Of a DNA stretch of 64,000 nt, positions 27,142-64,000 are shown piece after piece (position 1 is the stretch's first letter; each line of letters starts with the position of its first letter). The translations under genes and the position numbers were made by a program. Origin of the DNA: Mytilus trossulus (lineage: Eukaryota); NCBI RefSeq assembly GCF_036588685.1, contig NC_086385.1, forward strand, positions 28,233,216-28,297,215, given 5' to 3'. The notes beneath the pieces are model-generated. The model did no database searches. It saw only the letters and a list, made by a program, of their open reading frames with translations, and was not told the DNA's origin.

Positions 27142-27432
27142 GTTTAAATATACCTTTTCACTTTTTTGGTCTATTGGAAAATGTTGTTTGAGCTGTATTT
27201 AGACCCTTCTACATCGAAATTTGATATACATGCACACGTATAAAAATAGAGGTTTTTATCTAACGCGATCATAGGTTGACATATGCGAAGGGAGGATGTC
27301 ACATGTCTTACGTCTTTTGCATTGTTGTCATGTTTTATTTTGACGCGATCTGTCAAATTCTGTATATTCTGTATTTATACATAACTCTTTATATATATAG
27401 AACGCAACGTGGCATTACCATTGATGATTTAA

Positions 27433-28017
27433 GGAGGCTCGCGGGTATAAGATTTTACGAAAAAAATAAAACATTTTTTTTTTCATTACAAGTTTTATTT
27501 ATTACCTTTAGTAGTTGTTACTTTATCACATGGTACAAAAATCATTCCAAAAAATCAAGTCGTGTTGGCTCCAGGTGACTTTTAAAATGTACACAGCATT
27601 GAAAAAGCTCCAAATTATGATCTCCCTGTAGTGCAAAAATGCCATTTTTTGGTATTAGAATTGAAATATCTTTTTAAACCCATCGGTGGCCTATATGTGT
27701 TATTGTTGTTTTCGAATAAGCTGTACATAAACTAAATAATTGTAAAATTTAAGCGATTTCTTTAATTTAGTTATTTTTTTCTTTTTGATATTACCGCTTT
27801 TTCTCCTATTAGTTCAACAGAAAAAAAGGACAGTCACACTTACAAAAATGTATGTTTCTTTCGAAGGCAGATTGTGAGCGTAAATGAACGGTGACCCCAT
27901 TTTTTTATTTCATTTTTCTATTTAGTATAAGATAAAGTTAATTTATAGAAACATACATGACATATAGAGAAATCCTATATTAAATAAAAAAAAAATGGTT
28001 TAGACCCGCGAGCCCCC
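27433..28017. mobile_element. Kolobok-type MITE
   Basis: TTAA|GGAGGCTCGCGGGT ... ACCCGCGAGCCCCC|TTAA; partial inverted relative at ~35270-35600. Confidence 0.8.
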
Positions 28018-33553: not shown

Positions 33554-33974
33554 TATTTACTATTATTATAAGCTTCGTGTAAATTATTAAGCAATGAAAA
33601 ACATGACATTTGGAGTTTTACCAAGGGAGCTAAAAAATAATTAATAACACTGTCTGCCACACAGCATTTCGGGGACTCTTCCTCTGGTATTTTTCCTCGC
33701 TCTATTATAGCTGACTATGCGGGGGCTTTTCTAATTATTGGGGGCACTATAATGACCTATAGTTGTTAATTGTTGTGTCATTTAGTCTCTTGGCAATCAT
33801 AAACTCTGGACACTTTTAATTTGCAAAACACTCATTTGCAAATCCGCCGCCGCCTCAAACAAGAGCTACAATATCATGTATATAACCAAAATGTGCGGAA
33901 TTACATGGGATTCAATAATTTCATTGATTTTATACTGTTACTTTCATATTTATTTTGCAATTTGAATTATAAAA

Positions 33975-34162
33975 ACATGGGATTTTCAATATCCCATGGG
34001 ACAGGGCAAAATCCCATGGGATTTACCATTATCCCATGGGATTTTGGTTAAATCCCATGGGATTTTTTTTGGTCCCATGGGACAAAAAAAATCCCATGGG
34101 ATTTTTATTATCCCATGGGATTTTTAATATCCCATGGGACAACATAAAATCCTATGGGATTA
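33975..34162. repeat. About 20-bp array of the palindrome ATCCCATGGGAT (mirror copy at 48150-48378)
   Basis: About 10 units left and about 12 units right. Confidence 0.9.
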
Positions 34163-36360
34163 AAATTATAAATATATATATATAAATATAAAGTTATGTG
34201 TATGTTACAATGAATGCTGTTTGGTCATGTTGGTAGTAAAATGTTTTAAATGTATACGAGTTTTTTTTATAATTTTTATATATATATACATATATATAAT
34301 TTTTTTGTAAATTTTGTCACAAACATGTTTTTTATTTGTTTATATGACAATAAATATTATTCTTATTTTGGAATGTATAATAATAATATTTTACAGTCAA
34401 AGAATAAAGTTCTTTCACTGAAACAAAATGATGAAATTTCTAAATAAATGAAAAAATATTGTTTTGAAATCTTTGTCTTGTTTATTCTAATATGAAAAAT
34501 AGAACTGAAAAAATATTTCATATTCTGACTGAATAGTTCACTCTTTTCATGAGGTAAGATTTTCTTTGTTATAGGTTCATTGCAATACTTGTATAGGCAA
34601 ACAATTTGAATTATATATACCTTTGTGGTGTACATAAAAGTATGCTTATATTTGCAAATTTATAATATAAACACTTTTTGTTAAAGTTTTTGCTTTCTTT
34701 ATTCACAACTTGCTATATACAATTATTCAGTCCACTATATATGAGTGAAGTCAATAAATAATTTCATTCACTAGAATATTCCTGCAATTCTTAGACAAAA
34801 TATTTTTTCAATCTGTTCTTCAAAGATCTTCCTCTGTACATCTTTATTGAATGGAGAGATTCAAATGAGAAGACAAAGCAAGTTTATTTGGACAACAACA
34901 TTCTAATATCTTGTTCATTCATTCCATCTTTCAATTGATAATTACATTGTTGTATTTATATGATCAAGTTCTTGTGCATCAATGATCGTGATGATATGAC
35001 TCATTTTTGTTTATAGTCATCATGTTGAAATTTCCTCTTTCAAATAAATGTAGGAAAAAACATGTTCCATTTCAAATTAATAAAAAAGTCGCACCATGGA
35101 GAAAAATATCAGCTTTAAGTTTTCCGTTCAGTATTGATCTGTGAATGATGACCATGAAAATTGAGATGTCTGACCTACAAATACACAAACTCAAAAATTA
35201 TCAGTGAAGAGATCAATAAAATGGCTATTTTATCATGTTTATGATTAATATGATAAACTTTCATTTAAATATTCAAGTACTAAATTACAGAAATCACTAA
35301 AATTTTATAATAGTTTAGTTAAAGTACAGCTTATTTAAAATTATAATAAAAAATATAGGCCACCGATGAGTTAAATAAGATATTATATTTCTAATGCCAA
35401 AAAAATGGCATTTTTGCACTAAAGGGAGATAATTTGGAGCTTTTTCAATGATACATATGCATTTCAAAAGTCATCTGGGGCCAAACCCAATTGATTGTTT
35501 TGAATGATTTGGTGTACCATATGATAAAGTTATAAATAAAATGAGTAATGAAAAAAAATTATTAAACATTTTTCTGAAATTGTTATACCCTAGAGCCTCC
35601 TTAAATGTCATTTGATCTCTATTGGAGAAATGTCTCATTGGAAATCAGACTGCTAAGTGTTTCTTATTTTTATATCAACCCAGCCATATTATACCTGTCT
35701 TATATCAGGAGCTTGTACATAGTTCAGTGGTTGATGTTGGTTCATATCCGTCATTTTTTTTTTTCATAATTTTTTGTTTTTGTAAATTAGTCTGGTATAT
35801 TTGACGTTTGAATTGATGCTCTGTTTCAAATTTGGTTAGTGTTGACTTTTATAGATTACTATAACATGTATAGGGTATGGGTTTTCTCATTACTTACAGG
35901 TCATCAATGGCCTCTAATAAGTAATTACAATTCTTACATCCACTAAATTGAACTCTGATGGATAGTTTTCTCTTTCATGATACCACATCTTATTTTAATA
36001 AATATTTAATCATTATTCAAGGACAAAAACTTTTATAACTGTGGACTTACCATTTAGGCTTTGTTGACCTCTGTAAATCTTATTTTGTTGATAATTTCTT
36101 CTGTTTATAGTTTCCCCTTTATCTTTCATGTTCTTGTCCTACACATAAAAGGGTAAACATCATTTAATGACAAAAATAACTACTACATGTATTACATAAT
36201 TAGTAGGCAACTGAAAATGTTGTCTTATTTGTATATATAACATCAACTTACTCATTATTCATGCCGTTCAATATCATGAATATTATCATTATTCTATGAA
36301 TATGAGGTCACAGTAAAATTAACCTTGGCAGGCAGACAGACAAGTAGACCTATGCTTAAA

Positions 36361-36723: not shown

Positions 36724-37862
36724 CTAGAGGCTCTCAAGAGCCTGTGTCGCTCACCTGTTAATGTGTTTACTGATGTCTTATCCATCTTCGTTGGTAGGCG
36801 GGGTCATTAGACACTTTTTTTTAAAATAGATACCCTAGTATTATGATGGTGGCCAAGTTTGGTTAAATTTGGCCAAGTAGTTTTAGAAATGATTTTATAC
36901 AAGTTACAAAAATGACGAAAAGTTGTTCAATATTGACTATAAAGGGCAATAACTCCTTAAGGGGTCCTCTAACAATTTTGATCATGCTGACTTATTTGTA
37001 GATCTTACTTTGCTGAACATTATTGCTGTCTACAGTTTATCTCTATCTATAATAGTATTCAAGATAATAACCAAAAACTGCAAAATTACCTTAAAATCAC
37101 CAATTTTAGGGCAGCAACCCAACAACAGGTTGTCCAATTCATTTGTGAGGGGATAGATCTTATTCTGATGGACATTTAAATCTTGAAAGATTTGCCCTAA
37201 ATGTCTTAGTTGCAAAGATATAAAGCAAAACCTGCATGTTACCACTATGTCCTAATTTTAGCCATTTCAGCCATTTTGTTTGGTAGGCTGGGTCATCGGA
37301 CACATTTTTTAAACTACAAACCACAATGATGATTGTGGCCAAGTTTGGTTAAATTTGGCAAAGTAGTTTCAGTGAGGAATATTTTTAAAAAAGTTACAAA
37401 AAATGATGAAAAGTTGTTAAAAATTGACTATAAAGTGCAATAATTCCTTAAGGGGTCGACTGACAATTTTGGTCATGTTGACTTATTTGTAGGTCTTACT
37501 TTGCTGAACATTATTGCTTTTACAGTTTATCTCTATCTATAATAGTATTCAAGACAATAACCAAAAACTGCAAAATTTTCTTAAAATAACCATTTCACAG
37601 GCAGCAACCCATCAACAGGTTGTCCGATTCGTCTGAAAATTTCAGGGCAGATAGATCTTGACCTGATCAACAATTTAACCCCCAGTCAGATTTGCTCTAA
37701 ATGCTTTGGTTTTTGAGTTATAAGCCAAAAACTGCATTTTACCCCTATGTTCTATTTTTAGCCATGGCGGCCATCTTGGTTGGTTGGCCGGGTCACGCCA
37801 CACATTTTTTAAACTAGATACCCCAAGGATGATTGTGGCCAAGTTTGGTAGAATTTGGTCCA
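36724..37862 (+). mobile_element. 3'-truncated HINE (Helentron-associated) element with about 490-bp core repeats
   Basis: Same head as 49810 (ctagaggctct..agagcctgtgtcgctcacc); ggccaagtttgg recurs at ~36851, 37337 and 37837. Confidence 0.8.
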
Positions 37863-39585: not shown

Positions 39586-39939
39586 TTCCATCTTAATCAG
39601 TGAACTGAATAATTGTTTTTTGCAGAAGTCCAGGGAGTGTTAAAAATCACATGTGCAAGACTTACACAGGGACTACACAATCTCGAGTACACAATACTTT
39701 TTCAGAATGTCAGCAAAAAAGAATCACTGGTGACAGGGGAGTGTAATCGATGAATTGATCCTGAATCAGATAAGATTTTCCCGGTACGTCTAAACACCGC
39801 TCAGGAGGACCTCCTGGGTGCACACATGCAGGGCATACAAAGTGCACTCATGGCAGATCCTATATAGTCGCCGTCGTATCTGCACACATGATGAATGTAT
39901 ATATTCGTTATAGATCGTCATCTCTTCTCAATTTTGGAG

Positions 39940-44545: not shown

Positions 44546-45811
44546 ATAGGACCATCCCCTTTGTCTTGGGTTGGGACCCCCCCCCCCCTTTTTTTAAATG
44601 GCTGGATCCGCCCCAGCATACCATCTAGCTATCTATAAAGGCTTTTAAAATATGGAATCAAACAAGGAAATTAACAGTGTAGGCAACTGTCTTGAATTTA
44701 AAAAAAGTCTTTTACATTACCATGATTACATATATAAAAATGTTAAAAATTTTTGTGCATTTATTTTTGCTTATCGTATTTTCAATAATGGACAAAATTG
44801 CATGATTGAATATTGTAATTTAAGAAAAATCAGCATACATGATATAAAATGGGAAGTGGAAACTGGGAATTTGACAAAGAGACAACAATCCAATCAAAGA
44901 GCAGACAACGGCCGAAGGTCACCTATGGGTCTTCAATGCAGTGAGAAAAATTCGGCACTGGTCTTCAGCTCATAAATATGTATCAGAAATGAAAACGAGA
45001 TACAGCTTTCAGTTGCATTAATAAAAACCTCACAATAAGTTCTGAATATCAGAATATACAGTTCTGCAAGATTCTCTCAAAATGTAGACATAGAGCTGAA
45101 AAACTGTCAGTGACTGTAAAATTAATCATGCTTACATTAAAGTCTATGGAGTCTATCTTAATATGCATACTCTCGTACAAAGGAATATAAGTATGCAATA
45201 GACATCAAGTTTTCAAAAATAAGAGTATCTATGCCATTGATTTACAATATTTTAATCAAGTAATAATTTCGGTTTGTTTAAATATTTCGGAGGTTAGTAT
45301 GACCTCCTCTTTGGTGATGATGTGTTCGTTTTAAATTTGGGAAAATTATTTGTACATGTACCAACAAAAATAAAAACACAAAGTCAATCTAGAATTATGT
45401 TTTTATCATTTTTTTATGTTTAGGTTGTCAGCAAGATGAAAAGGACAAGTATGCAGTTCAAAATTCAAAATGTGGATAAGTTGAGGTTCTAGGTCTTACC
45501 TTTGCAGATTTTCATATTTTGCATGAATGAATTCAAAGGTTATGTGATGGACAGCAGAGAAAGAAAAAAACAACTTTACAATTATCCTGCTCCTGGATAA
45601 ATGTAAAACATCTTGTTTTTCGGTAAGTTTCATGCTCTGTTTTGATAGTGTTAGTGCATTCATCTTTCCAGTCTTTCCTCTAAATTGTAAGTTTTTGGTG
45701 AGTGTTCACCATGAATTTCAGTAAGCATGGTAAGTAACTTGTGGATTTACATGTATATATACTCAAAATTTAGTACTAATATTAATGGGATTTGAGCATG
45801 ACATCCGGCCA

Positions 45812-47346: not shown

Positions 47347-49809
47347 TTTATATATATACTATGTATATAACTTGGGAAAATACCCAAATGTTATAAAGAA
47401 GAATAATTTAATTGATTGTTATATGGTATTAGAATAGGAAGATGTGGTATATTGCTAATTTGACAACCCTTCATCAGAGACCAAAGGATGTAGGCTGTTA
47501 GCAACTGATGACACTGGACAACCTGTAACAATCAGTAAAATCCATACCGCATAGCTATTTTTATTGAAAATCATATTATTGCTACATGTATGAAAACAAT
47601 TTTGTATAATCCATTACTTTAGATTTTATTGGTTCTTTTTCAGAAGGATTGAAATTCACCACCTAGAATAAATGGAGAAAACATAGAAACAAGACCAGAA
47701 TAAATTCGAAGACAAAAGTTGGATCAGTTATTATTTTCATCACTCAGTCAATGATTTGAAGTTCTTTTAAATTCAAAAAAATATTGAAACCACAATAATG
47801 TCAAAGTTCTGTACTGAATGTCCAAAAAGTGGACTATACCATCAAACAATGCTGGATGATAAGAAACTATTAATGTTTTGTGTTGAGAGATATGGCAAAT
47901 AATTGTGTTTCAAGAAAGTATTCTATAATTCATGAATAAACATATATTGATACTTACATTATCTGCTTTGTTGTTTAAAAGTTTAGTTTTGAACAGTTAA
48001 CAAATGTTAAAGAACAATATGCTAAATTAACATTTCCCAAGAAAAAAAGATATTCAATTAAAAAGATTCATCTTATAATAATTTACTACCAAATAGAATA
48101 CATTGTAACATACACATTACTGTTTATATATATCTATATATTTACAATTAGAATCCCATAGGATTTTAATTTGTCCCATGGGATATTGAAAATCCCATGG
48201 GATAATAAAAATCCCATGGGATTTTTTTTGTCCCATGGGACAACAAATATCCCATGGGACTACAATAATCCCATGGGACAAAAAAAAATCCCATGGGATT
48301 TAACCAAAATCCCATGGGATAATGGTTAATCCCATGGGATTTAGCCCTGTCCCATGGGATATTGAAAATCCCATGTTTTTATAATTCAAATTGCAAAATA
48401 AATATGAGAGAAACTGTAGAAACCCAATGAAATTATTGAATCCCATGTAATTCTGCACATTTTGGTTATATACATGATATTGTAGCTCTTGTTTGAGGCG
48501 GCGGCGGATTTGCAAATGAGTGTTTTGCAAATTAAAAGTGTCCAGTGTTCATAATACATATTCTTTTATATACAGCTATGTCGTAATAACGACATAGCTA
48601 TTTCGTTATTACGACATGTTATGTCGAAATTACGACATGCTTTGTCGTAATTACGACATAATATTTTTTTTTTGAATGGCCCTTATCGGCTTCCGTAGTA
48701 CATACATCACTATGTCGTAATAAAGACATCACTACATATGTCGTAATAACGACATCACTTTGTCGTAATAACGACATCGCTATATATATAAAAAAAAAGA
48801 ATATGGTTTATATATTATGATTGCCAAGAGACTAAATTACACAGAAATTAACAACCATATGTCATTGTAATGACTTCAATAATGAACAAAGCCCCCGCAT
48901 AGCCAGCTATAAAAGGTCACAAAATGACAAATGTTAAACAATTTAATTCAAACGAGAAAATCAACGGCTTTATTAATGTACAAAAAAATGAACGAAAAAT
49001 AAATATGTTACACAGCCACTGAATTACATGCTCCTGATCTCATAATTAGGACAAAATTAGCGTTATCACTTTTTGAGGCGATAGGAAATTCGATATGGTC
49101 GTTAGTGAGAGCAAAGTTTGTAATTGATCTTTTTTCAGAATAATGAACACCAAATGCAATCTAGCCTACAGTTATATTACTTGCACACAATACAACTTTA
49201 TTTTATAATCAAGTATAATGAGACCCGGTTGCACAGGGGAGCGATTCAGACTCTTTGGAGCCACCAGTTATGTTTGACATGTACAGATTCATGTAAAATA
49301 AGACTGCATTTCTATTGCAGGTTATAAAGAAGAGGAATTGTTTAAAGCTTTTCGCAATAAAGACTATGTTAAATTTTGGACTCATAGTGCTCAGACCCAT
49401 GGACCTCTGTACCATCATTTGTACACAATTGAATCTTAATGTCCTACTGATGCTTGATGCACATTACAAAAATACAGCGTCCTCCCCATTGAAGCCTTAA
49501 TTATAACTTTGGACCTCAAGTTTTTTAAACAAATATTCCCCATGACAACTATTCCTACAAACTTAGGGAGAGGTTTATGATACCACTAACATGTTTAACC
49601 CCGCCACATTATGTATGAATGTGCATGTTCCAAGTCAGGAGTCTGTACTAAATAAAGGATCTAAATAGCCTGAATCGTTCATCATTTCAATGGGTCCCAT
49701 TATACTTGATTATGAAATAAAGTTCTATTATGTGCATACATATAGATTAAATAAAATTAATATTAATTATGAATAAACTTGATTGAATTCAATGTTTATC
49801 ATTATAAAA

Positions 49810-50936
49810 CTAGAGGCTCTAAAGAGCCTGTGTCGCTCACCTTGGTCTATGTGAATATTAAACAAAGGACGCAGATGGATTCATGACAAAATTGTGTTTT
49901 GGTTATGGTGATGTGTTTGTTCATCTTAATTTACTGAAAATTCTAGCTGCTTACATTTGTTCAATTATCTCTATATATAATTAACTTGGCCAAGTAGTTT
50001 CAGAGGAGAAGATTTTTGTAAAAGATTACTAAGATTTACGAAGAAATTGTTAAAACATGACTATAAAGGGCAATAACTCCTAAAGGGGTCAACTGACAAT
50101 TTCGGTCATATTGACTTATTTGTAGATCTTACTTTGCCAACATTTATTGTTTTTTTACAGTTTATCTCTATCTATAACAATATTCAAGATAATAACCAAA
50201 AACAGCAAAATTTCCTTAAAATTACCAGTTCATGGTCAGCAACCCAACAACGGAATGTCGGATTTATCTGAAAATTTCAGGGTAGATAGATTTTGACCTG
50301 AGAATCAATTTTACTTCAATGTCAGATTTGCTTTAAATGCTTTGGTTTTTTAGTTATAAGCCAAAAACTGAATTTTACCCCTATGTTCTATTTGTGGCGG
50401 CCATCTTGTCTCGTCACACATTTTTTAAACTAGATATCCAAATGATGATTGTGGCCAAGTTTGGTTTAATTTGGCCCTGTAGTATCAGAGGAGAAGATTT
50501 TTGTAAAAGATTACTAAGATTTACAAAAAATTGTTAAAAATTGACTATAAAGGGCAATGACTCCTAAAGGGGTCAACTGACCATTTCGGTCATGTTGACT
50601 TATTTGTTAATCTTACTATGCTGAACATTATTGCTGTGTACAGTTTATCTCTATCTATAATAATATTCAAGATTAAATAACCAAAAACAGCAAAATTTCC
50701 TTAAAATTACCAATTCAGGGTCAGAAACCCAACAACGTGTTGTCCGTTTCATCTGAAAATTGTAGGGCGGATAGATCTTGACCTGATGAACAATTTAACC
50801 CCATGTCAGATTTGCTTTAAATGCTTTGGTTTTTGAGTTATAAGCCTAAAACGAACGACGACAGACGACGGACGACGGACGACGGACGCAAAGTGATGGA
50901 AAAAGCTCACTTGGCCCTTTTAGGCCAGGTGAGCTA
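49810..50936 (+). mobile_element. Complete HINE (Helentron-associated, pearl/DINE-like) element
   Basis: 5' hairpin aggctct/agagcct plus subTIR gctcacc; about 485-bp core x2; (GACG)-rich microsatellite; 3' hairpin agctcac.tggcc..ggcca.gtgagct; flanked by A runs. Confidence 0.85.
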
Positions 50937-52148
50937 AAAAATGAATATGTTCACGATAGGGTTTTGATACAAACTTTGCCCTTACTAGCGGCAATTTTAA
51001 AACAGGTGAAAAGTTAACGTAAAAACTCTTTTTAAGGACCCGGATATTAGGTACATAATGTATACTTATACTAACTTAAAGTTTAAACTCTGTCATTTTA
51101 GCGATCTTGAAAAGAAGATTTTGTACATTAATTCTTCAAAGTCCCTTGGGGCCATTAGTTTTAACCAATTGGTAACTAAGTAACAACACTTGAATAGGAC
51201 ATTATAGGGTACACGTATATCAAGTTTGATTCAATTCTGATAGGTGGTCCTTAAAATAAAGATAAAAATAAATTCCACTAGTGTATCAATGCTCACAAAG
51301 TAACAACGGTTGTCGTAATTACGATATAGCGATGTCGTTATTACGGAATAGCGATTTTGTTATTTCCACATACTATGTCGTTATAGTACGACACAGCGAT
51401 GTCGTTATTACGACATACTACATGTTTGTCGTGGTTACGACATAAATAATATTTTTTTCGAATGACTCTTATCGGCATTCGTACAATATACTTTTAATTT
51501 ATTAACTGTAACATAAAATAAACTTATGTTCTTGTTATAATTTTGAAATTATTGTTTAGTCTGTTATCATTTGTTTTGAATCGGTTCGTTTATTTTCTCA
51601 GTTGAATAGTTTTTCATTTGTCTAGTGTGGGCCTATAATATGTAACTATGGGGTACGGGTGATGCTCATTCTTGAAGGCCATATACTGACCTGTATTTGT
51701 TAATTCAGCCAGTTGGTCTCTAGTAGAGAACTACCTCATTCGCAATCATGCTATATATTCTTTTTATTTGTATTTCCATCAGTTTGTACAATGAATTGTC
51801 TACACAACAAAAAGTTTAGACGCAATGACAAACATGCGTTTGACAATGTTTTTCCCGGTCCTCAATGATGCTGCACGTAGTATTTTCCTCTTTCTGCATG
51901 CGAATTGGGTCTATATTGAAAAAAAGAATTATGTACAACTATAAAGAAGACAGTGGAAATGATATTCAAAAGAACAAATGATTCAATTAAATTAAAACTA
52001 AAAAAATAACAATCGTATTTTCTTCCATGTACAATAGAAATGAGTTAAAGAAGTACTTACCTGAGTGTACAAGTGATGACACCTAAAAGATGAAATAAAT
52101 CTTATATATGTGAAATAAAATGCTCATCGAAGTTTGGTTGCAATATAA

Positions 52149-55100
52149 ATGAAAATACATGAGTGTCTTACTCTTTTAGTTAACACCGACGGCAGTTTGA
52201 GGGTATCCACAAAACAAAGTTCCACAGCTATAAAGTTGTTGTCACCATTATCAAGTACAATTATTCCTACTACAACTAAACCAATCAGCAATACTATACC
52301 GTTCAGTATAAATATACCTACCAGTACAACTATACCTACTATTAAAACTCCACCTTCCCGTACAACTACACATATATTTACCACTACATCTACCAATACT
52401 ACTTTACTAACCAGTACGACTATACCTACCAGTACAGCTACACCAACCAGTACAGCTACACCAACCAGTACAACTACACCAACCAGTACAGCTACACCAA
52501 CCAGTACAACTATACCAACCAGTACAGCTACACCAACCAGTACAACTATACCAACCAGCCCAACTATAGCTACCAGTACTAATACACCAACCAGTACAAC
52601 TGTACCTACCAGTACTTCTACACTAAGCAGTACAACTGTACCTGTAAGTACATTTACCCCTACATCTACTAGTACACCTTTATCTACCAGTACTGCTACA
52701 TCAAAGATGACAACTAATCCTACCAGTACAACTATAGCTACCAGTACTACTATACCTACCAGTACTTCTATACCTACAAGTACAAAAACAGTAACCAGTA
52801 CTACTACATTAAGAAGTACAAAAGTGCCTATCAGAAGAACTATACCTACCAGCACAACAACAATAACCAGTACAATTGTACCAACCATTATTATTATACC
52901 TACTAGGACGACTACAATTGTGCCTAGTATTACTACTATACCTAGCAGTACTACCTCACCTACCAGTACTCCTACACCTACAAGTACAACTACTCCTACT
53001 AGTAAATGTATACATACCAGTACTACCACTACACCAACCAGTACAACTGTACCTCCTAGTACTACTGTACATTCAATATACTCCAATTCTTCAACAATTA
53101 CCAGTACAACTATACCTACCAGTACAACTATACCTACAAGTACAACTATAGAGACCAGTACTAATACACTAACCAGTACAAATGTACCTACCAGTACAAC
53201 TACACTAACCATTACAACTGTACATGCAAGTACACAAACTAGTAAAACTATACCTTACAGTAGAATTGTACCGACCAGTACAACTGTACCTACCATTACG
53301 ACTGTACCTACAAGTTTAACTAAACCTACAAGTACAATTATACCAACTATTACAACTGTACCATCCAGTACTACTAAATTAACCAATACATATGTACCTG
53401 TAAGTGCAATTATACCTACCAGTACAACTTCTCCCACAAGTACAACTACAACAACAAGTACAACTATAGCTACCAGTACTACTACACCTAATAGTACAAC
53501 TTTACTTACGAGTAAAACTGTACCTCCTAGTACTACTACACCAACCAGTACAATGGTACTTACAAGTACTACACTATCTTTAAGTACTACTATATCTACC
53601 AGTACAACAGTGCATACCAGTACAACTGTATTTACCAGTACTACTGTACCAATCAGTACATCTGTACCTGTAAGTACCACTATACCGTCCAGTAGAACTG
53701 TACTTAACAGTGCCATTATACCTACCAGTATAAATTCTCCCAAAAGTACAACTACACCAACAAGTACAATTATAGCCACCAGTAGTACTACTTCATCTAG
53801 TGATACAACTATACTTACGAGACCACATGTACATTCTAGTACTACTACACCAACCAGTACAATTGTACTTTCCAGTACTACAATACCTACCAGTACTACT
53901 ATATCTACCACTACAACTGTACCAACAAGTACATCTATACCAACCAGTAAAACTGTATCTACCACTACAACTGTGCCTTCCAGTAGTTCTACACCTGCCA
54001 CTACGACTGTACCTACCAGTGCAATTATACCTAGGAGTACAACTTCTCCCACCAGTCTTACTATACCAACCAGCAAAACTGTATTAGTTAGTACAACGAC
54101 ACCTAACAGTACATCTGTACCTATAAGTACCACTATAACTTCCAGTAAAACTGTACCAACCAGTACAACTATACCTACCAGTACAACTTTTCTCACCAGT
54201 ACACCTACACCAACAAGTACAACTATAGCTACCAGTACTACTACTTCACCTAGTGGTACAACTTTACTTACAAGTACAACTGTACCTCCTAGTACTACTA
54301 CACCTACCAATACAATTGTACTTTCCAATACTACAATACCTACCAGTACTACTATATCTACCAATACAACTTTGCCTTCCAGTAGAACTGTTTCTACCAG
54401 TAGTTCTACACCTGACACTACCAGTACAATTATACCTAGGAGTACAACTTCTCCCACCAGTACTACTATACCAACCAGCACAACTGTATTAGTTAGTACA
54501 ACTACACCTAACAGTACATCTGTACCTATTAGTACCACTTTACCTTCCAGTAAAACTGTACCTACCAGTGCAATTATACCTACCAGTACAACTTCTCTCA
54601 CCAGTACAGCTACACCAACAAGTGCAACTACAGCTACCAGTACTACTGATTCACCTACTAGTACAACTATACTCACAAGTACAACTGTACCTCCTAGTAC
54701 TACTACACCAACCAGCACAATTGTACTTACCGTTAATACAATACCTACAATTACTTCTATATCTACCAGTACAAATGTGCCTACTAGAACAATTGTACCT
54801 ACAAGTACTACTACACCTACTACTACAACTACAAAAACCAGTGCAATTATACCTACCAGTACAACTTCTCCCACCAGTACAACTACACCAACAAATACAA
54901 CTATAGCCACCAGTAGTACTACTTTACCTAGTAGTATAACTACACTTACGAGAACAAAAGTACCTCCTAGTACTACTATACCAACCAGTACAATCATACT
55001 TACCGATACTACAATAACTTACAGTACTACTATATCTACCAGTACAACAGTGCCTACCAGTAAAACTGTACCTACAAGTATTACTATACCTACTAGTACA

Positions 55101-58100
55101 ACTACACCAACCAGTGCAATTATACCTACCAGTACAACTTCTCCCACCAGTACAACTACACCAACAAGTACAACTATAGCTACCAGTACTACTACTACAT
55201 CTAGTATTACAACTATACTTACGAGTACAACTGTACCTCCTAGTCCTTCCACACCAACCAGTACGATTGTACTTACCAATACTACAATACCTTTCAGTAC
55301 TTCTATATCTACCAGTACAGCAGTGCCTTTCAGTGCAACTGTACCTGACAGTACTACTATACCAACCAGAACAACTGTATTATCCAGTACTACTACACTA
55401 ACCAGTACATCTGTACCTGTAAGTACCACTGTACCTTCCTGTAGAATTGTACCTTCCATTGCAATTATACCTACCAGTACATCTTCTCTCACCAGTGCAA
55501 CTACACTAACAAGTGCAACTATAGCTAATACTACTACTACTTCACCTACTAGTACAACTATACTCAAGAGTACAACTGCACCGCCTAGTACTACTACACC
55601 AACCAGTACAATTGTACTTACCGGTAATACAATACAAACCAGTATTTATAAATCTAACAGTACAACTGTGCCTACCAGTACAACTATACCTACCAGTACA
55701 ACTGTACCTACAAGTTTTACTACACCTACAAGTACTACTACACCAACCAGTACTATTATACCAACTAGTATATCTGTATCTGTAAGTACCACTACACCTT
55801 CCAGTAGAACTGTACCTACCAGTGCAATTATACCTACCAGATCAACTTCTCCCACCAGTACAACTTCACCAACAAGTACAACTATAGCTACCAGTACTAC
55901 TACTTCACCTTCTAGAACAACTATACTCAAGAATACAACTGTACCTCCTAGTACTACTACTACATCCAGTACAATTGTACTTACCAATACTACAATACCT
56001 ACCAGTACTACTATATCTATCAGTACTACTACATCTACCAGAACAACTGTATTTTCAAGTACTGTACCTTTAACTACACCAACTAGAACATATGTTCATC
56101 TCAGCACTACAACACCTACAAGTACAAATATACCTACCAGTACAACTGTACAATCCAGTATTACTACACCTTCAAGTACGACTACACCAACCAGTCCAAT
56201 TAAACCTACCATAACAACTTCTCCAACCAGTACAACTACACCAACAAGTACAACTATAGCTACCAGTACTACTACTACATCTAGTAGTACAACTATACTT
56301 ACGAGTACAACTGTACCTCCTAGTACTTCCACACCAACCAGTACGATTGTACTTACCAATACTACAATACCTTCCAGTACTACTATTTCTACCAGTACAA
56401 CAGTGCCTACCAGTGCACCTGTACCTACCAGTACTACTATACCATCCAGAACAACTGTATTATTCAGTACTACTACACTTACCAGTACATCTGTACCTGT
56501 AAGTACCACTGTACCTTCCAGTAGAGTTGTACCTACCAGTGCAATTATACCTACTAGTACAACTTCCCTCACCAGTGGAACTACACCAACAAGTACAACT
56601 ACAGCTACCAGTACTTCTACTTCACCTACTAGTACAACTATACTCAAGAGTCCAACTGCACCGTCTAGTTCTACTACACCAACCAGTACAATTGTACTTA
56701 CCAGTGCTACACTACCTGCCAGTACTACTATATCTACCAGTACAACTGTGCCTACCAGTAGAACTGTGCCTACAAGTTTTACTACACCTACTAGTACTAC
56801 TACACCAACCAGTACTATTAAACCTATCAACAATACTATACCAACCAGTACATCTGTATCTGTAAGTACCACTATACCTTCCAGTAGAACTGTACCTTCC
56901 AGTGCAATTATACCTCCCAGTACAACTTCTCCCACCAGTACAACTGTTCCTCCTAGTACTACTAAACCAATCAGTACAATTATACTTACCAGTACTACAA
57001 TTCCTACCAGTACTACTATATCTATAAGTACTACTACATCTACCAGAACAACTGTACCTTCAAGTACTGTACCTTTAACTACACCAACTAGTACAACTGT
57101 ACATTCCAGTACTACAACACCTACAATTATACCTACTAGTACAACTATACCTTCCAGTACTAATACACCTACCCGTACAACTGTACTTTCCAGTACAACT
57201 ACACCAACTAGTACAACTGTACCTTCTAGTACAACTGTACCTACCAGTGCTACTATACCTTCAAGTACAACTGTACCTACCAGGACAACTACACAAACCA
57301 GTACAACTGTACCTACTAGTACTACTATACCTACAAGGACAACTACACCAAGCAGTACTACTACACTGACCAGTACAACTTTACATGTTAGTACTACTAT
57401 ACCTACTGGTACGACTCTACCTAATACTAGTACAACACCTGTCAGTAAAACTACATCATCTAGTACAGCTGTATATCCCAGTACTACTACACCTAACAAT
57501 ACAACTTCACCAACAAGTACAACTGCATTTATCAGTAAAACTGTACTTTCCAGTACAACTATACGTACCAGTACTACTACTCCTATAAGAACAACTACAC
57601 CTACCAGCACTACTTCACCTACTAGTTCTTCTATACCTACCAGTACAACTGTACCATCGAGCACTACTACATTAACCAGTACAACTGTACCTTTTAGTCC
57701 GACTATACCTTCCAGTAGAATTGCAACCACTAGTACAACTTTACCTGTACCTTCAATTACAAATGTAACTACCACTACAACTACACCAACCAGTACAACT
57801 GGTACTACTACACCTACTTGGACAACTATACACACCAGTACTACTTTACCTACCAGTAGTAATATACCTACAAGGAAAACTGTACCTACCATTACAACTG
57901 TTCATACAAGTAGTACTATACCTACTAGTACAACTACACCAACCAGTACTTCTATATCTACCAGTACTACTATACCAACCAATACATCTGTACCTGTAAG
58001 TACCACTATACCTTCCAGTAGAACTGTACCTACCAGTGCAATTATACCTACCAGATCAACTTCTCCCACCAGTACAACGTCACCAAGTGCTACTATAGAA

Positions 58101-61100
58101 ACCAGTGCTACTACTTCACCTATTGGTAAAACTACACTTACGAGTACAACTGTAATTCCTAGTACGACTACATCAACCAGTACAATTGTACCTACCAGTA
58201 CTACAATACCTACAAGTACTACTTCACCTATTGGTACAACTACACAAACCAGTACAACTGTACCTACTAGTACTACTATACCTACTATGACAACTACACC
58301 AAGCAGTACTACAATACTTACAGGTACAACTGTACCAAATAGTACTACTACACTGACCAGTACAACTTTACATGTTAGTACTACTATACCTACCGGTACG
58401 ACTCTACCTAATACTAGTACAACACCTGTCAGTAAAACTACATCATCTAGTACAGCTGTATATCCCAGTACTACTACACCTAACAATACAACTTCACCAA
58501 CAAGTACAACTGCATTTATCAGTAAAACTGTACTTTCCAGTACAACTATACGTACCAGTACTACTACTCCTATAAGAACAACTACACCTACCAGCACTGC
58601 TTCACCTACTAGTTCTTCTATACCTACCAGTACAACTGTACCATCGAGCACTACTACATTAACCAGTACAACTGTACCTTTTAGTCCGACTATACCTTCC
58701 AGTAGAATTGCAACCACTAGTACAACTTTACCTGTACCTTCAATTACAAATGTAACTACCACTACAACTACACCAACCAGTACAACTGGTACTACTACAC
58801 CTACTTGGACAACTATACACACCAGTACTACTTTACCTACCAGTAGTAATATACCTACCAGGAAAACTGTACCTACCATTACAACTGTTCATACAAGTAG
58901 TACTATACCTACTAGTACAACTACACCAACCAGTACTACAAGAACCTCCAGTACTACTATACCAACCAATACATCTGTACCTGTAAGTACCACTATACCT
59001 TCCAGTAGAACTGTACCTACCAGTGCAATTATACCTACCAGATCAACTTCTCCCACCAGTACAACGTCACCAAGTGCAACTATAGCTACCAGTGCTACTA
59101 CTTCACCTATTGGTAAAACTACACTTACGAGTACAACTGTAATTCCTAGTACGACTACATCAACCAGTACAATTGTACCTACCAGTACTACAATACCTAC
59201 AAGTACTACTTCACCTATTGGTTCAACTACACAAACCAGTACAACTGTACCTACTAGTACTACTATACCTACTATGACAACTACACCAAGCAGTACTACA
59301 ATACTTACAGGTACAACTGTACCAAATAGTACTACTACACTGACCAGTACAACTTTACATGTTAGTACTACTATACCTACCAGTACAACTGTACCATCGA
59401 GCACTACTACATTAACCAGTACAACTGTACCTTTTAGTCCGACTATACCTTCCAGTAGAAATGCAACCACTAGTACAACTTTACCTGTACCTTCAATTAC
59501 AAATGTAACTACCACTACAACTACACCAACCAGTACAACTGGTACTACTACACCTACTTGGACAACTATACACACCAGTACTACTTTACCTACCAGTAGT
59601 AATATACCTACCAGGAAAACTGTACCTACCATTACAACTGTTCATACAAGTAGTACTATACCTACTAGTACAACTACACCAACCAGTACTACAAGAACCT
59701 CCAGTACTACTATACCAACCAATACATCTGTACCTATAAGTACCACTATACCTTCCAGTAGAACTGTACCTACCAGTGCAATTATACCTATCAGATCAAC
59801 TTCTCCCACCAGTACAACGTCACCAAGTGCAACTATATCTACCAGTGCTACTACTTCACCTATTGGTAAAACTACACTTACGAGTACAACTGTAATTCCT
59901 AGTACGACTACACCAACCAGTACAATTGTACTTACCAGTACTACAATAACCTCCAGTACTACTATACCAACCAGTACATCTGTACCTATAAGTACTACTA
60001 CACCTTTCAGTACAATTGTACTTACCATTAATACAATACTTACCAGTTCTACTATATATATCAGTACAACTGTGCCTACCAGTACAACTCTACCTACAAG
60101 TACTACTGCACCTACTAGTACAACTACACCAACCAGTGCAGTTATACCTACCAGTAAAATTTCTCACACAAGTACAACTACACCAACAAGTACAACTATA
60201 GCTACCAGTAGTACAACTACACCCATTAGTACAACTACACTTACGAATACAACTATAATTCCTAGGACGACTACACCAACTAGTACAATTGTACTTACCA
60301 GTACTATTATACCTTCCAGTACTACTATACCAACCAGTACATCTGTACCTGTAAGTACTACTACACCTTTCAGTAGAACTGTACCTAGCAGTGCAATTAT
60401 ACCTTCCAGATCAACTTCTCCCGCCAGTTCAACTTCTCCCACCAGTAAAACTACACCAACAAGTACAACTACACCAACAAGTACAACTATAGCTATCAGT
60501 ACTACTACTTCATCTAGTGGTACAACTACACTTACGAGTACATCTGTAACTCCTAGTACTAAAACACCAACCAGTACAAATAAACTTACCAGTACTACAA
60601 TTTTTACCAGTACTACTATATCTACAAGTACTACTACATCTACCAGAACAACTGTACCTTCAAGTAATGTACCTTTAACTATACCAACTAGTACAACTGT
60701 ACATCCCAGCACTACAACACCTACAATTACAACTATACCTAACAGTACAACTATTTATTCCAGTACTACTACACCTACCAGTTCACCTATACCTTTTAGT
60801 ACAACTACACCAACAAGTAACACTATAGCTACCAGGACTACTACTACTACACCTAGTAGTACAACTACACTTACGAGTACAACTGTAATTCCTAGTACGA
60901 CTACACCAACCAGTACAATTGAACTTACCAGTACTACAATACCTACAAGTACTACTTTATCTTCCAGTACAACTGTGCCTACCAGTACAACTGTGCCTAC
61001 CAGTACAACTATACCTTTCAGTACTACTACCCCTTCCAGTACAACTATAGCTACCAGCATTACTACTACACATAGTAGTACAATTACACTTACGAGTGCA

Positions 61101-64000
61101 ACTGTAATTCCTAGTACGACTACACCAACTAGTACAACTGTACTTACCAGTACTACAATACCTACCAATACTACTATACCAACCAATACATCTGTACCTT
61201 CCAGTAGAACTGTACCTACCAGTGCAATTATACCTACCAGATCAACTTCTCCCACCAGTACAACTTCTACCACCAGTACAACTACACCATCAAGTACAAC
61301 TATAGCTAACAGTACTACTTCTTCATCTAGTGGTACAACTACACGTACGAGTACAACTGTCATGCCTAGTACGACTACACCAACAAGTACAACTATAGCT
61401 ATCAGTACTACTAAATCAACCAGTTCAACTATACCAACGATTACAACTGTGCCTACCAGTACAATTACATCTACCAGTACAACTACACCAACCAGTACAA
61501 CTGTACCTACCAGTACTACTACACCAACCAGTACAACTGTACCTTTGAGTACAACTACACCAACTAGTACAACTATAGCTACTAGCATTACTACTACACA
61601 TAGTAGTACAACTACACTTACGAGTACAACTGTAATTCCTAGTACGACTACAAAAACTAGTACAATTGAACTTACCAGTACTAAAATACCTACCAGTACT
61701 ACTATACCAACCAATACATCTGTACCTTCCAGTAGAACTGTACCTACCAGTGCAATTATACCTACCAGATCAACTTCTCCCACCAGTACAACTACACCAA
61801 CAAGTACAACTATAGCTAACAGTACTACATCTTCATCTAGTGGTACAACTACACTTACGGGTACAACTGTAATGCCTAGTACGACTACACCAACAATTAC
61901 AACTATAGCTATCAGTACTACTAAATCAACCAGTTCAACTATACCAACGATTACAACTGTGCCTACCAGTACTACTACACCAACCAGTACAACTGTACCT
62001 ACCAGTACTACTACACCAACCAGTACAACTGTACCTACCAGTACTACTACACCAACCAGTACGACTATACCTACCAGTACAATTACACCAACTAGTACAA
62101 CTACACCTACCAGTACTACTATACCTACCAGTACAACTACACCAACCAATACAACTGTACCTACCAGTACTACTACACCAACCAATACAACTATACCTAC
62201 CAGTACTACTACACCAACCAATACAACTGTACCTACCAGTACTACTACACCAACCAATACAACTGTACCTACCAGTACAACTATACCTACCAGTACTACT
62301 ACACCAACCAATACAACTATACCTACCAGTACTACTACACCAACCAATACAACTATACCTACCAGTACTACTACACCAACCAATACAACTGTACCTACCA
62401 GTACAACTACACCAACCAATACAACTATACCTACCAGTACTACTACACCAACCAATACAACTATACCTACCAGTACTACTACACCAACCAATACAACTGT
62501 ACCTACCAGTACAACTATACCTACCAGTACAACTATACCTACCAGTACTACTATACCTACCAGTACAACTACACCTACCAGTACTACTATACCTACCAGT
62601 ACAACTACACCAACCAATACAACTGTACCTACCAGTACAACTACACCAGCAAGTACTACTATACCTACCAGTACAACTACACCAACCAGTGCAATTATAC
62701 CTACCAGATCAACTTCTCCCACCAGTACAACTACACCACCTAGTACAACTATACCTACCAGTACTACTACCTCATCTAGTGGTACAACTACACTTACGAG
62801 TACAACTGTAATTCCTAGTATGACTACACCAACAGGTACAATTGTACTTACCAGTACTACAATACCTACCATTACTACTTTATCTTCCAGTACATCTATG
62901 CCTACCAGTACAACTGTACCTACAAGTACTTCTACACCTATTAGTACAACAACACCAACAAGTACAACTATAGCTATCAGTACTACTACTACATCTAGTG
63001 GTACAACTACACTTACGAGCACAACTGTAATGCCTAGTACGACTTCACCAACAAGTACAACTATAGCTATCAGTACTACTAAATCAACCAGTTTAACTAT
63101 ACCAACGATTACAACTGTGCCTACCAGTACTACTACACCAACCAGTACAACTGTACCTACCAGTACTACTACACCAACCAGTACGACTATTCCTACCAGT
63201 ACACTTACACCAACTAGTACAACTACACCTACCAGTACTACTATACCTACCAGTTCAACTACACCAACAAATACAACTGTACCTACCAGTACAACTACAC
63301 CAAACAATACAACTATACCTACCAGTACAACCACACCAACCAGTGCAATTATACCTACCAGATCAACTTCTCCCATCAGTACAACTACACCAACTGGTAC
63401 AACTATACCTACCAGTACTACTACCTCATCTAGTGGTACAACTACACTGATGAGTACATCTGTAATTCCTAGTACGACTACACCAACCAGTACAATTGTA
63501 CCTACCAGTACTTCAATACCTACCATTACTACTTTATCTTCCAGTACAACTGTGCCTACCAGTACAACTGTGCCTACCAGTACAACTGTACCTACAAGTA
63601 CTACTACACATACTAGTACAACAACACCAACAAGTACAACTACACCTACAAGTACAACTATAGCTATCAGTACTACTACTACACCTAGTAGTACAACTAC
63701 ATTTACGAGAACATCTGTAACTCCTAGTACTAAAACACCAGCCAGCACAAATGAACTTACCAGTTCTAAAATTTCTTCCAGTACTACTATATCTACAAGT
63801 ACTACTACATTTATCAGAACAACTGTACCTTCAAGTACTGTACCTTTAACTACACCAACTAGTACAACTGTACATCCCAGCACTACAAAACCTACAATTA
63901 CAACTATACCTAACAGTACAACTATTTATTCCAATACTACTACCCCTACCAGTACAACTGTACATTTCAGTACAGCTACACCGATAAGTACAACTACAGA
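52149..64000 (+). CDS. Giant Thr/Ser/Pro-rich mucin-type (PTS) domain, partial, at least about 3,950 aa, runs off the window
   Basis: Frame with codons at positions divisible by 3: ATG 52149 MKIHECLTLLVNTDGSLRVSTKQSSTAIKLLSPLSSTIIPTTTKP...(PTSTT[TIV])n...PISTTT. Alternative start at the splice acceptor ctcttttAG|52180 (phase 1). All ten antisense Val-rich ORFs share one register, so there is no frameshift; spot checks show no stop. Confidence 0.9.
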   Translation, partial: MKIHECLTLLVNTDGSLRVSTKQSSTAIKLLSPLSSTIIPTTTKPISNTIPFSINIPTSTTIPTIKTPPSRTTTHIFTTTSTNTTLLTSTTIPTSTATPTSTATPTSTTTPTSTATPTSTTIPTSTATPTSTTIPTSPTIATSTNTPTSTTVPTSTSTLSSTTVPVSTFTPTSTSTPLSTSTATSKMTTNPTSTTIATSTTIPTSTSIPTSTKTVTSTTTLRSTKVPIRRTIPTSTTTITSTIVPTIIIIPTRTTTIVPSITTIPSSTTSPTSTPTPTSTTTPTSKCIHTSTTTTPTSTTVPPSTTVHSIYSNSSTITSTTIPTSTTIPTSTTIETSTNTLTSTNVPTSTTTLTITTVHASTQTSKTIPYSRIVPTSTTVPTITTVPTSLTKPTSTIIPTITTVPSSTTKLTNTYVPVSAIIPTSTTSPTSTTTTTSTTIATSTTTPNSTTLLTSKTVPPSTTTPTSTMVLTSTTLSLSTTISTSTTVHTSTTVFTSTTVPISTSVPVSTTIPSSRTVLNSAIIPTSINSPKSTTTPTSTIIATSSTTSSSDTTILTRPHVHSSTTTPTSTIVLSSTTIPTSTTISTTTTVPTSTSIPTSKTVSTTTTVPSSSSTPATTTVPTSAIIPRSTTSPTSLTIPTSKTVLVSTTTPNSTSVPISTTITSSKTVPTSTTIPTSTTFLTSTPTPTSTTIATSTTTSPSGTTLLTSTTVPPSTTTPTNTIVLSNTTIPTSTTISTNTTLPSSRTVSTSSSTPDTTSTIIPRSTTSPTSTTIPTSTTVLVSTTTPNSTSVPISTTLPSSKTVPTSAIIPTSTTSLTSTATPTSATTATSTTDSPTSTTILTSTTVPPSTTTPTSTIVLTVNTIPTITSISTSTNVPTRTIVPTSTTTPTTTTTKTSAIIPTSTTSPTSTTTPTNTTIATSSTTLPSSITTLTRTKVPPSTTIPTSTIILTDTTITYSTTISTSTTVPTSKTVPTSITIPTSTTTPTSAIIPTSTTSPTSTTTPTSTTIATSTTTTSSITTILTSTTVPPSPSTPTSTIVLTNTTIPFSTSISTSTAVPFSATVPDSTTIPTRTTVLSSTTTLTSTSVPVSTTVPSCRIVPSIAIIPTSTSSLTSATTLTSATIANTTTTSPTSTTILKSTTAPPSTTTPTSTIVLTGNTIQTSIYKSNSTTVPTSTTIPTSTTVPTSFTTPTSTTTPTSTIIPTSISVSVSTTTPSSRTVPTSAIIPTRSTSPTSTTSPTSTTIATSTTTSPSRTTILKNTTVPPSTTTTSSTIVLTNTTIPTSTTISISTTTSTRTTVFSSTVPLTTPTRTYVHLSTTTPTSTNIPTSTTVQSSITTPSSTTTPTSPIKPTITTSPTSTTTPTSTTIATSTTTTSSSTTILTSTTVPPSTSTPTSTIVLTNTTIPSSTTISTSTTVPTSAPVPTSTTIPSRTTVLFSTTTLTSTSVPVSTTVPSSRVVPTSAIIPTSTTSLTSGTTPTSTTTATSTSTSPTSTTILKSPTAPSSSTTPTSTIVLTSATLPASTTISTSTTVPTSRTVPTSFTTPTSTTTPTSTIKPINNTIPTSTSVSVSTTIPSSRTVPSSAIIPPSTTSPTSTTVPPSTTKPISTIILTSTTIPTSTTISISTTTSTRTTVPSSTVPLTTPTSTTVHSSTTTPTIIPTSTTIPSSTNTPTRTTVLSSTTTPTSTTVPSSTTVPTSATIPSSTTVPTRTTTQTSTTVPTSTTIPTRTTTPSSTTTLTSTTLHVSTTIPTGTTLPNTSTTPVSKTTSSSTAVYPSTTTPNNTTSPTSTTAFISKTVLSSTTIRTSTTTPIRTTTPTSTTSPTSSSIPTSTTVPSSTTTLTSTTVPFSPTIPSSRIATTSTTLPVPSITNVTTTTTTPTSTTGTTTPTWTTIHTSTTLPTSSNIPTRKTVPTITTVHTSSTIPTSTTTPTSTSISTSTTIPTNTSVPVSTTIPSSRTVPTSAIIPTRSTSPTSTTSPSATIETSATTSPIGKTTLTSTTVIPSTTTSTSTIVPTSTTIPTSTTSPIGTTTQTSTTVPTSTTIPTMTTTPSSTTILTGTTVPNSTTTLTSTTLHVSTTIPTGTTLPNTSTTPVSKTTSSSTAVYPSTTTPNNTTSPTSTTAFISKTVLSSTTIRTSTTTPIRTTTPTSTASPTSSSIPTSTTVPSSTTTLTSTTVPFSPTIPSSRIATTSTTLPVPSITNVTTTTTTPTSTTGTTTPTWTTIHTSTTLPTSSNIPTRKTVPTITTVHTSSTIPTSTTTPTSTTRTSSTTIPTNTSVPVSTTIPSSRTVPTSAIIPTRSTSPTSTTSPSATIATSATTSPIGKTTLTSTTVIPSTTTSTSTIVPTSTTIPTSTTSPIGSTTQTSTTVPTSTTIPTMTTTPSSTTILTGTTVPNSTTTLTSTTLHVSTTIPTSTTVPSSTTTLTSTTVPFSPTIPSSRNATTSTTLPVPSITNVTTTTTTPTSTTGTTTPTWTTIHTSTTLPTSSNIPTRKTVPTITTVHTSSTIPTSTTTPTSTTRTSSTTIPTNTSVPISTTIPSSRTVPTSAIIPIRSTSPTSTTSPSATISTSATTSPIGKTTLTSTTVIPSTTTPTSTIVLTSTTITSSTTIPTSTSVPISTTTPFSTIVLTINTILTSSTIYISTTVPTSTTLPTSTTAPTSTTTPTSAVIPTSKISHTSTTTPTSTTIATSSTTTPISTTTLTNTTIIPRTTTPTSTIVLTSTIIPSSTTIPTSTSVPVSTTTPFSRTVPSSAIIPSRSTSPASSTSPTSKTTPTSTTTPTSTTIAISTTTSSSGTTTLTSTSVTPSTKTPTSTNKLTSTTIFTSTTISTSTTTSTRTTVPSSNVPLTIPTSTTVHPSTTTPTITTIPNSTTIYSSTTTPTSSPIPFSTTTPTSNTIATRTTTTTPSSTTTLTSTTVIPSTTTPTSTIELTSTTIPTSTTLSSSTTVPTSTTVPTSTTIPFSTTTPSSTTIATSITTTHSSTITLTSATVIPSTTTPTSTTVLTSTTIPTNTTIPTNTSVPSSRTVPTSAIIPTRSTSPTSTTSTTSTTTPSSTTIANSTTSSSSGTTTRTSTTVMPSTTTPTSTTIAISTTKSTSSTIPTITTVPTSTITSTSTTTPTSTTVPTSTTTPTSTTVPLSTTTPTSTTIATSITTTHSSTTTLTSTTVIPSTTTKTSTIELTSTKIPTSTTIPTNTSVPSSRTVPTSAIIPTRSTSPTSTTTPTSTTIANSTTSSSSGTTTLTGTTVMPSTTTPTITTIAISTTKSTSSTIPTITTVPTSTTTPTSTTVPTSTTTPTSTTVPTSTTTPTSTTIPTSTITPTSTTTPTSTTIPTSTTTPTNTTVPTSTTTPTNTTIPTSTTTPTNTTVPTSTTTPTNTTVPTSTTIPTSTTTPTNTTIPTSTTTPTNTTIPTSTTTPTNTTVPTSTTTPTNTTIPTSTTTPTNTTIPTSTTTPTNTTVPTSTTIPTSTTIPTSTTIPTSTTTPTSTTIPTSTTTPTNTTVPTSTTTPASTTIPTSTTTPTSAIIPTRSTSPTSTTTPPSTTIPTSTTTSSSGTTTLTSTTVIPSMTTPTGTIVLTSTTIPTITTLSSSTSMPTSTTVPTSTSTPISTTTPTSTTIAISTTTTSSGTTTLTSTTVMPSTTSPTSTTIAISTTKSTSLTIPTITTVPTSTTTPTSTTVPTSTTTPTSTTIPTSTLTPTSTTTPTSTTIPTSSTTPTNTTVPTSTTTPNNTTIPTSTTTPTSAIIPTRSTSPISTTTPTGTTIPTSTTTSSSGTTTLMSTSVIPSTTTPTSTIVPTSTSIPTITTLSSSTTVPTSTTVPTSTTVPTSTTTHTSTTTPTSTTTPTSTTIAISTTTTPSSTTTFTRTSVTPSTKTPASTNELTSSKISSSTTISTSTTTFIRTTVPSSTVPLTTPTSTTVHPSTTKPTITTIPNSTTIYSNTTTPTSTTVHFSTATPISTTT

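Follow-up and report, generated by a model that had tools for sequence, protein, structure and literature searches.

Introduction

Mucin-type PTS domains, defined by a Ser+Thr content of at least 40% and a Pro content above 5%, are described as being extended by O-glycosylation into a protease-resistant brush (PMC4948705). Some of these domains are encoded in a single, very large exon: the one PTS exon (exon 2) of human MUC3A and MUC3B measures 15,873 bp and 39,267 bp, respectively (PMC9578598), and MUC4 alleles are reported to reach 27.8 kb (PMC13345508). In the domain layout described for membrane mucins, the signal peptide is followed by the PTS region (PMC9080433). Orphan mucins such as MUC7 and rodent Muc10, discussed under the term 'mucinization', combine a secreted protein with exonic Thr/Ser repeats, are described as lacking shared ancestry with other mucins, and belong to the mammalian mucins in whose repeats changes outside Thr/Ser are reported to be near-neutral (PMC9417175). 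Gel-forming mucins (MUC2/5AC/5B/6) and lophotrochozoan VWD-C8-TIL proteins with F5/F8 and CysD domains share the composition of Ser+Thr above 40% and Pro above 5% (PMC4948705).

Here, we analyse a window of 64,000 nucleotides (the whole stretch of DNA under study) from the mussel Mytilus trossulus, in which positions 52180–64000 are, with good confidence, a large PTS exon of a plus-strand mucin-like glycoprotein gene. Because the MUC3A/B and MUC4 exons are comparable or larger, the size of the mussel exon is not exceptional. The locus resembles MUC3A/B in carrying its tandem-repeat PTS region in one giant exon close to the 5' end, after a signal peptide that is a candidate here, and differs from them in its unit, which has six residues and 16% Ile/Leu/Val, whereas the MUC3 consensus has 17 residues with one such residue; the likeness is one of working and layout, and family membership and sequence kinship lie beyond what the sequence supports. 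The SEA, EGF, and transmembrane exons and the cytoplasmic tail of a membrane-bound mucin (SEA or NIDO-AMOP-VWD type) would fall past the window end, which cuts inside the exon, as would the C-terminal VWD/VWC/cystine knot of a gel-forming one. With orphan mucins, the locus shares exonic Thr/Ser repeats, predicted secretion, and near-neutral change outside Thr/Ser, but mammalian orphan mucins have 3 to 42 repeats compared to ~650 or more in this bivalve, and no precursor gene was identified here. The locus shares its composition with gel-forming mucins. In contrast, their N-terminal VWD-C8-TIL assembly was not found upstream among plus-strand open reading frames (ORFs) of at least 32 aa in 1–52148, and CysD inserts, which several of their members have, are absent from a frame with 3 Cys in 3,950 residues. 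A signal peptide followed by a giant PTS exon, like membrane or orphan mucins and unlike gel-forming ones, is the best reading of the predicted layout.

Results

The plus-strand frame 52149–63998, preceded by a TAA at 52146, runs through 3,950 codons without a stop and is still open where the window ends. A previous sequence-only reading had claimed this stop-free plus frame and asked for its translation, which was run with that result. The other two plus frames contain 101 and 207 stops over the same interval, and the minus frames contain 10, 999, and 111. The encoded polypeptide in view (~398 kDa) has 1,676 Thr, 769 Ser, and 471 Pro, i.e., at least 2,445 Ser/Thr in total, and its 62% Ser+Thr and 12% Pro place it within the PTS definition; the composition holds in all 400-aa bins (Ser+Thr 56–67%, Pro 11–14%). 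No transmembrane segment was found within the visible product, in which the top 19-residue hydropathy is 1.39. The frame contains 111 Lys+Arg versus 12 Asp+Glu, a bias that agrees with what mutation can reach from Thr/Ser codons; of its 78 Asn, 53 lie in N-glycosylation sequons.

The frame consists mainly of a degenerate 18-bp array at 52271–63996 (Tandem Repeats Finder [TRF]: period 18, 646 copies, 65% matches), with ~650 units of the consensus P-T-S-T-T-[T/I/V]. Both this hexapeptide and the PTS composition had been read correctly from the bare letters. Exactly six codons are present in 605 of the 681 units of a codon-level model, with 370 distinct 18-mers among the 605, and the 47 register jumps in the array are each of whole codons, which the model imposes by construction. 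The two members of each exact 12-mer pair share a frame in 53,539 of 53,539 cases. Higher-order repeats are marked by an S-A-I-I-P landmark that recurs in 17 copies with a shortest spacing of 91 codons. Recent in-frame tandem duplications occupy 57354–59912 (98.8% identity at a 987-bp offset and 99.3% at a 753-bp offset), and the most homogeneous part, at 61962–62700, with 18/36-bp units that are 91–95% identical between neighbours, is likely the youngest expansion. Together with a non-repetitive head of ~30 codons, the array makes up a predicted internal exon of at least 11,821 bp (52180–64000, open at the window end); the tandem repeats with an intact frame in one stretch are observed, and the exon status is inferred from frame, repeat, and constraint analyses.

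Antisense ORFs of at least 100 aa number ten, and their left coordinates are all 2 mod 3, as had been stated. This shared value, taken as a sign of preserved register, reflects no more than membership of one frame. That frame shares third codon positions with the plus frame, and its long ORFs are therefore an expected shadow; the repeated stops ascribed to it are confirmed by the 10 counted. The richness in Ile+Leu+Val (16.2%), which had been singled out as notable, is present and derives from the sixth position of the unit plus mutation, and special selection is not indicated, with aliphatic gains at the neutral rate (see below).

Stop avoidance was assessed against an expectation built from the base frequencies at each slot of the 18-bp unit. 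The plus frame has 0 stops versus 5.9 expected (nominal P = 0.003), and the antisense frame has 10 versus 9.8 expected. Since the 10 antisense stops trace to 7 contexts, the plus-frame test is nearer P ~0.02 by our own arithmetic when duplicated events are allowed for, and stop avoidance on its own is modest evidence for coding. A larger expectation of 21.9 stops, from codon-position composition, was too generous in ignoring the unit structure and was superseded by 5.9. The absence of frameshifts weighs more than stop avoidance. As a control, non-coding repeats of the window were compared in 17 pairs: 62 non-3n indels accompany 619 substitutions, and a strict filter that excludes homopolymer and poorly aligned gaps leaves 15 for 612. 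At the strict rate, 4.9–14.4 frameshifts are predicted in the array for 200–587 substitution events, compared to 0 found (P = 0.007 to 6e-7); the figure of 587 counts the steps of a spanning tree over distinct units and may over- or under-count, and slippage of a 3-periodic unit may favour 3n indels more than in the control repeats. A BLAST gap census inside the array gave many 1–2-bp gaps. Because the open frame and the in-frame 12-mer pairs fix the frame, these gaps are read as artefacts of aligning diverged registers, a reading that leaves short compensated frameshifts unseparated.

At the level of residues, the array behaves differently from its frame. In 12 recent duplicate blocks, pN/pS is 0.78 on the plus strand and 0.81 on the antisense strand, and the differences are spread 61/67/68 over the codon positions. 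Among 224 private changes, called within 2,397 of 3,910 codons, the omega-like ratio is 1.05, and synonymous changes (55 versus 56.6 expected), changes to aliphatic residues (50 versus 44.5), and changes to Lys/Arg (16 versus 17.2) occur near the neutral rate; stops among them are 0 versus 0.9 expected, too few to be informative. The pN/pS of 0.78, the even codon-position spread, and the omega-like ratio look like neutral DNA, and dN/dS alone is unable to prove coding here. Two of 15 classes of private change depart from expectation: gain of Cys is depleted (1 versus 6.8, P = 0.009), and Ser-Thr exchange is in excess (39 versus 27.6, P = 0.02), with P values that are uncorrected and leave sequence-context mutation bias out of account. 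The same first-base change was found in 1 of 372 AGT codons (Ser to Cys) versus 31 of 1,190 ACC/ACA/ACT codons (to Ser). Read antisense, these would be Leu-to-His/Gln and Val-to-Asp/Glu changes, respectively, which runs the wrong way for a selected hydrophobic protein; the signal therefore points to the plus strand. The evidence supports the plus frame as the constrained one, in which frame, stops, and Cys are policed and residues drift almost neutrally. Selection on the plus frame, as earlier proposed, thus holds for the frame, for stops (0 versus 5.9), and for Cys (1 versus 6.8), and does not extend to the residues, with dN/dS-like values of 0.8–1.05. Policed frame, stops, and free thiols alongside drifting residues match what has been described for mammalian mucin repeats (PMC9417175).

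The splice acceptor earlier placed at 52178–52179 was recovered with an ad hoc matrix: this AG, with a pyrimidine tract (52164–52179), is the top acceptor of 15 AGs in 52060–52330, ranks 29th of 2,404 plus-strand AGs, and is predicted to be in phase 1. The in-frame ATG and ten codons before it (52149–52179) are probably intronic, with the ATG an alternative start; by eye, no signal-peptide-like hydrophobic core follows this ATG, in agreement with the previous reading. The upstream window was scanned for an ATG with a hydrophobic core and a phase-1 donor. Three candidates, two of them weaker, were found at loose thresholds, and only 29506–29566 remained under strict rules, whose thresholds were chosen after seeing it. 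The strict scan gave 0 minus-strand matches and produced a match in 4 of 150 simulated sequences (P ~0.03, under these post-hoc thresholds). In the candidate exon (29504–29566, plus strand), the ATG at 29506 opens a run of 20 codons and one further base, followed by a GTAAGT donor at 29567. The exon combines a hydrophobic core with small residues where cleavage would be plausible, has TTTCAG right before the ATG, lies in no self-repeat, and has an acceptor below the strong splice-site list. Its phase-1 donor matches the phase-1 acceptor at 52178–52179. We consider the chances evenly balanced that this candidate is the first coding exon of the array gene. If the giant exon is coding, its phase-1 splicing to 29504–29566 across a repeat-swollen intron of 22.6 kb (29567–52179, predicted from the splice, signal-exon, and repeat-block results) is somewhat favoured. 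A TATA-like run at 29369–29376, ~130 bp before the candidate ATG, may be a promoter, albeit a weak suggestion, and ~700 bp upstream of the candidate exon, at 28735–28831, unique sequence of higher GC content that includes a TGACGTCA palindrome is a possible regulatory element.

The 52 kb upstream of the array are repeat-rich. Inward-facing termini of one repeat family, at 29648 and 29696 on the plus strand and at 48701 and 51484 on the minus strand, delimit a block of 21,837 bp (29648–51484). The terminus at 48701 is 93% identical to that at 29696 over 85 bp, the terminus at 51484 shows 75–77% identity, and AAT is present at both outer flanks, a weak match of 3 bp. The distance of 665 bp from 51484 to 52149 agrees with the ~670 bp previously given for the end of a transposon block, beyond which the 5' exons had been suspected; the candidate signal exon, 81 bp outside the left end of the block, fits that suspicion. 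Without the block, the predicted intron would measure 776 bp (81 + 695). The position of the block supports 29504–29566 independently of the peptide criteria, short of proof. An inverted pair, 27427–27771 / 35279–35606, straddles the candidate exon, and inverted copies here therefore need not mark one insertion.

Several other elements were observed in the window. Inside the predicted intron, inverted arms at 33796–34225 and 48088–48555 are 92% complementary over 344 bp, lie 14 kb apart, and carry 19-bp CCCATGGG-containing repeats, and two copies of a repeat with a ~490-bp tandem unit (36866–37858 and 49983–50852) are 79% identical. The plus-strand stretches 39626–39750 and 49323–49439 have good acceptors and are coding-like, without a Pfam match, and may be gene pieces that were captured or have decayed; a direct junction of 39626–39750 with the candidate signal exon would create a stop. 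At 45424–45729, strong splice-like sites are clustered on the two strands, with three plus-strand donors and one minus-strand exon (45500–45592); a Chitin_synth_2 match there (E = 0.004, below cut-off) is probably due to chance. Further upstream, a broken tyrosine-recombinase (DUF3504) fragment, 24096–24281 (minus), accompanied by 25062–25247 (minus), has 17 database relatives, 16 in Mytilus (73–84% identity) and one in Haliotis (63%), a distribution that points to a mytilid genome. We take this fragment to be Crypton-like. At 15345–15536 (minus), a sub-cut-off RVT_1 match (E = 1.2e-4) marks a reverse-transcriptase fragment of a decayed non-LTR element. The foldback-like inverted pair 16133–16856 / 20512–21326 (~87–89% identical, with 21-bp tandem arrays, ~3.7 kb apart) is enclosed by the related pair 7984–8377 / 23208–23580. 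Rfam gave 0 matches, and strand skew outside repeats gave no informative signal.

The strongest splice signals near the array start are on the minus strand. A 22-nt micro-exon-like element at 52061–52082 (minus) is the best of 51 listed acceptor-donor pairs under the ad hoc matrices and tops the upstream 52 kb, and 2 of 60 simulated windows scored as high; it sits 97 bp from the plus-strand acceptor. By eye, the pyrimidine tract of that acceptor can also be read, on the minus strand, as a weaker donor at 52171, which would give an 89-nt intron to 52083. An antisense transcript near the array start is possible, though doubtful. A non-coding transcript is likelier than a coding one, which is unlikely because stops have accumulated in the Val frame as neutrality predicts. 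None of 8 antisense ORFs was found as an exact sequence in the protein collection.

Homology searches gave little. No Pfam family at the curated cut-off was found in the 403 of 403 plus-strand ORFs of at least 32 aa in 1–52148, and VWD, C8, TIL, CysD, SEA, and EGF were absent even among their weak matches; the VWD-type flanking domain that had been suggested was thus not found upstream in the window. The 193 of 397 minus-strand ORFs scanned gave no Pfam family at cut-off, just sub-cut-off RVT_1 and integrase matches. No match was found for residues 1–400 among proteins of 2,172–6,913 aa (1,983 candidates), for head residues 11–75 among proteins of 876–2,500 aa (51 candidates), for the 73-aa head among 1.84 billion representatives, or in PDB sequences, and the ESM Atlas gave no usable match (three unnamed clusters at 0.76–0.77). 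A 30-nt repeat pattern had 0 matches in metagenome and viral contigs, and a search for related loci confirmed 0 of 600 stretches. This absence of homologues is weak evidence, as such searches perform poorly with low-complexity and short queries and were probably blunted by low-complexity filters. No description of the gene was found among the top-ranked open-text literature results, PMC7333891 gave nothing about it, and it may be annotated or listed elsewhere. The gene is apparently an undescribed mytilid mucin-like member of a kind, giant PTS exons, that is already well known in vertebrates.

Discussion

The main uncertainty within the coding reading concerns the 5' end. The same exon might instead be joined to other small exons, to exons left of the window, or to a start at ATG 52149, and a gel-forming (VWD) or modular protein would then be possible; we hold this variant tentatively, as the less probable one. 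For the signal-peptide exon there is one computational candidate (P ~0.03 under post-hoc thresholds), two weaker competitors appear at loose thresholds, and the exon-like stretches at 39626 and 49323 are unassigned. Against such a variant, none of the 403 plus-strand ORFs has a Pfam family at cut-off, let alone VWD, C8, TIL, CysD, SEA, or EGF, a VWD N-terminus would require an intron of more than 52 kb, and no signal-like core lies past ATG 52149. The combination of an orphan mucin specific to mytilids and a non-coding antisense transcript that overlaps it is improbable. Coding on the minus strand is far less probable still. Its Val/Gly/Leu/Ile-rich frame would be spliced and, at least near the array edge, translated from ATG 53212 to the donor at 52171 and continue into the 22-nt exon, either by itself or in overlap with the mucin. 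Two observations speak for it: 52061–52082 outscores every other splice-site pair in 52 kb (2 of 60 simulations reached its score), and donor 52171 falls between two codons of the Val frame. However, the Val frame has 10 stops, as in the neutral expectation, Val-to-Asp/Glu-type changes are the commonest in it, donor-like sites recur in each unit on the minus strand, no Pfam family at cut-off was found in the 193 of 397 upstream minus-strand ORFs scanned, and the openness of the frame follows from shared wobble positions. Equally remote is the reading of both strands as coding, in which the plus strand would encode a de novo orphan mucin made of the signal exon and a bare PTS polymer, and the minus strand a spliced, very hydrophobic, Val/Gly-rich protein of ~350 or more residues.

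Readings without a living gene are very unlikely. In a non-coding 18-bp minisatellite, with consensus codons mostly two steps from a stop and slippage in threes, one frame would be open by chance. The near-neutral substitution pattern, the expectation of just 5.9 stops (fewer as independent events), and the ORFs of 140–186 aa in 21-bp non-coding arrays of the same window are compatible with this, and mobile elements bearing tandem repeats have been described in oyster (PMC7492417). What speaks against it is the count of frameshifts (0 versus ~5–14 expected), the strand asymmetry of stops and of the Ser-to-Cys change, the phase-matched acceptor at the array edge, and a length of 11.8 kb, when no control array exceeds 0.6 kb. 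A mucin-like gene that recently died or fell silent, e.g., via a large first-intron insertion, would leave the open frame as a relic, and we give this little probability as well. The absence of any lesion in 11.8 kb, including duplications that are 99% identical, argues for a living gene; the neutrality of the most recent layer of change, which would fit a dead gene, is also reported as residue drift in living mucins (PMC9417175). The 21.8 kb of repeats inside the predicted intron would also fit a dead gene.

The preferred reading is thus a plus-strand mucin-like gene, in which the candidate signal-peptide exon 29504–29566 would be spliced in phase 1 to 52180 over an intron swollen by the 21.8-kb repeat block. 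The mature protein would then begin almost directly with the PTS domain, without an N-terminal VWD assembly. By analogy with established mucin biology, the product may enter the secretory pathway, where, judging from its composition, at least 2,445 Ser/Thr could be O-glycosylated to give a stiff, hydrated, protease-resistant bottle-brush. Such a brush might lubricate or shield an epithelium, or build mucus or the crystalline style; in the shipworm crystalline style proteome, mucin is reported as the top animal protein class (22.5%) (PMC8561940). In a polymer of this kind, length and Ser/Thr density would count and exact sequence would not; the array grows by in-frame duplication. Exons past 64000 would decide between a membrane-anchored and a secreted form.

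The model yields a precise predicted splice junction, 29566 to 52180. A gene of this kind is easily masked as a satellite or called on the wrong strand, and the locus illustrates cleanly how selection can act on the frame, on stops, and on cysteine while residues drift freely. The structural proteins of mussel mucus and of the crystalline style are poorly identified, which gives the locus its local value.
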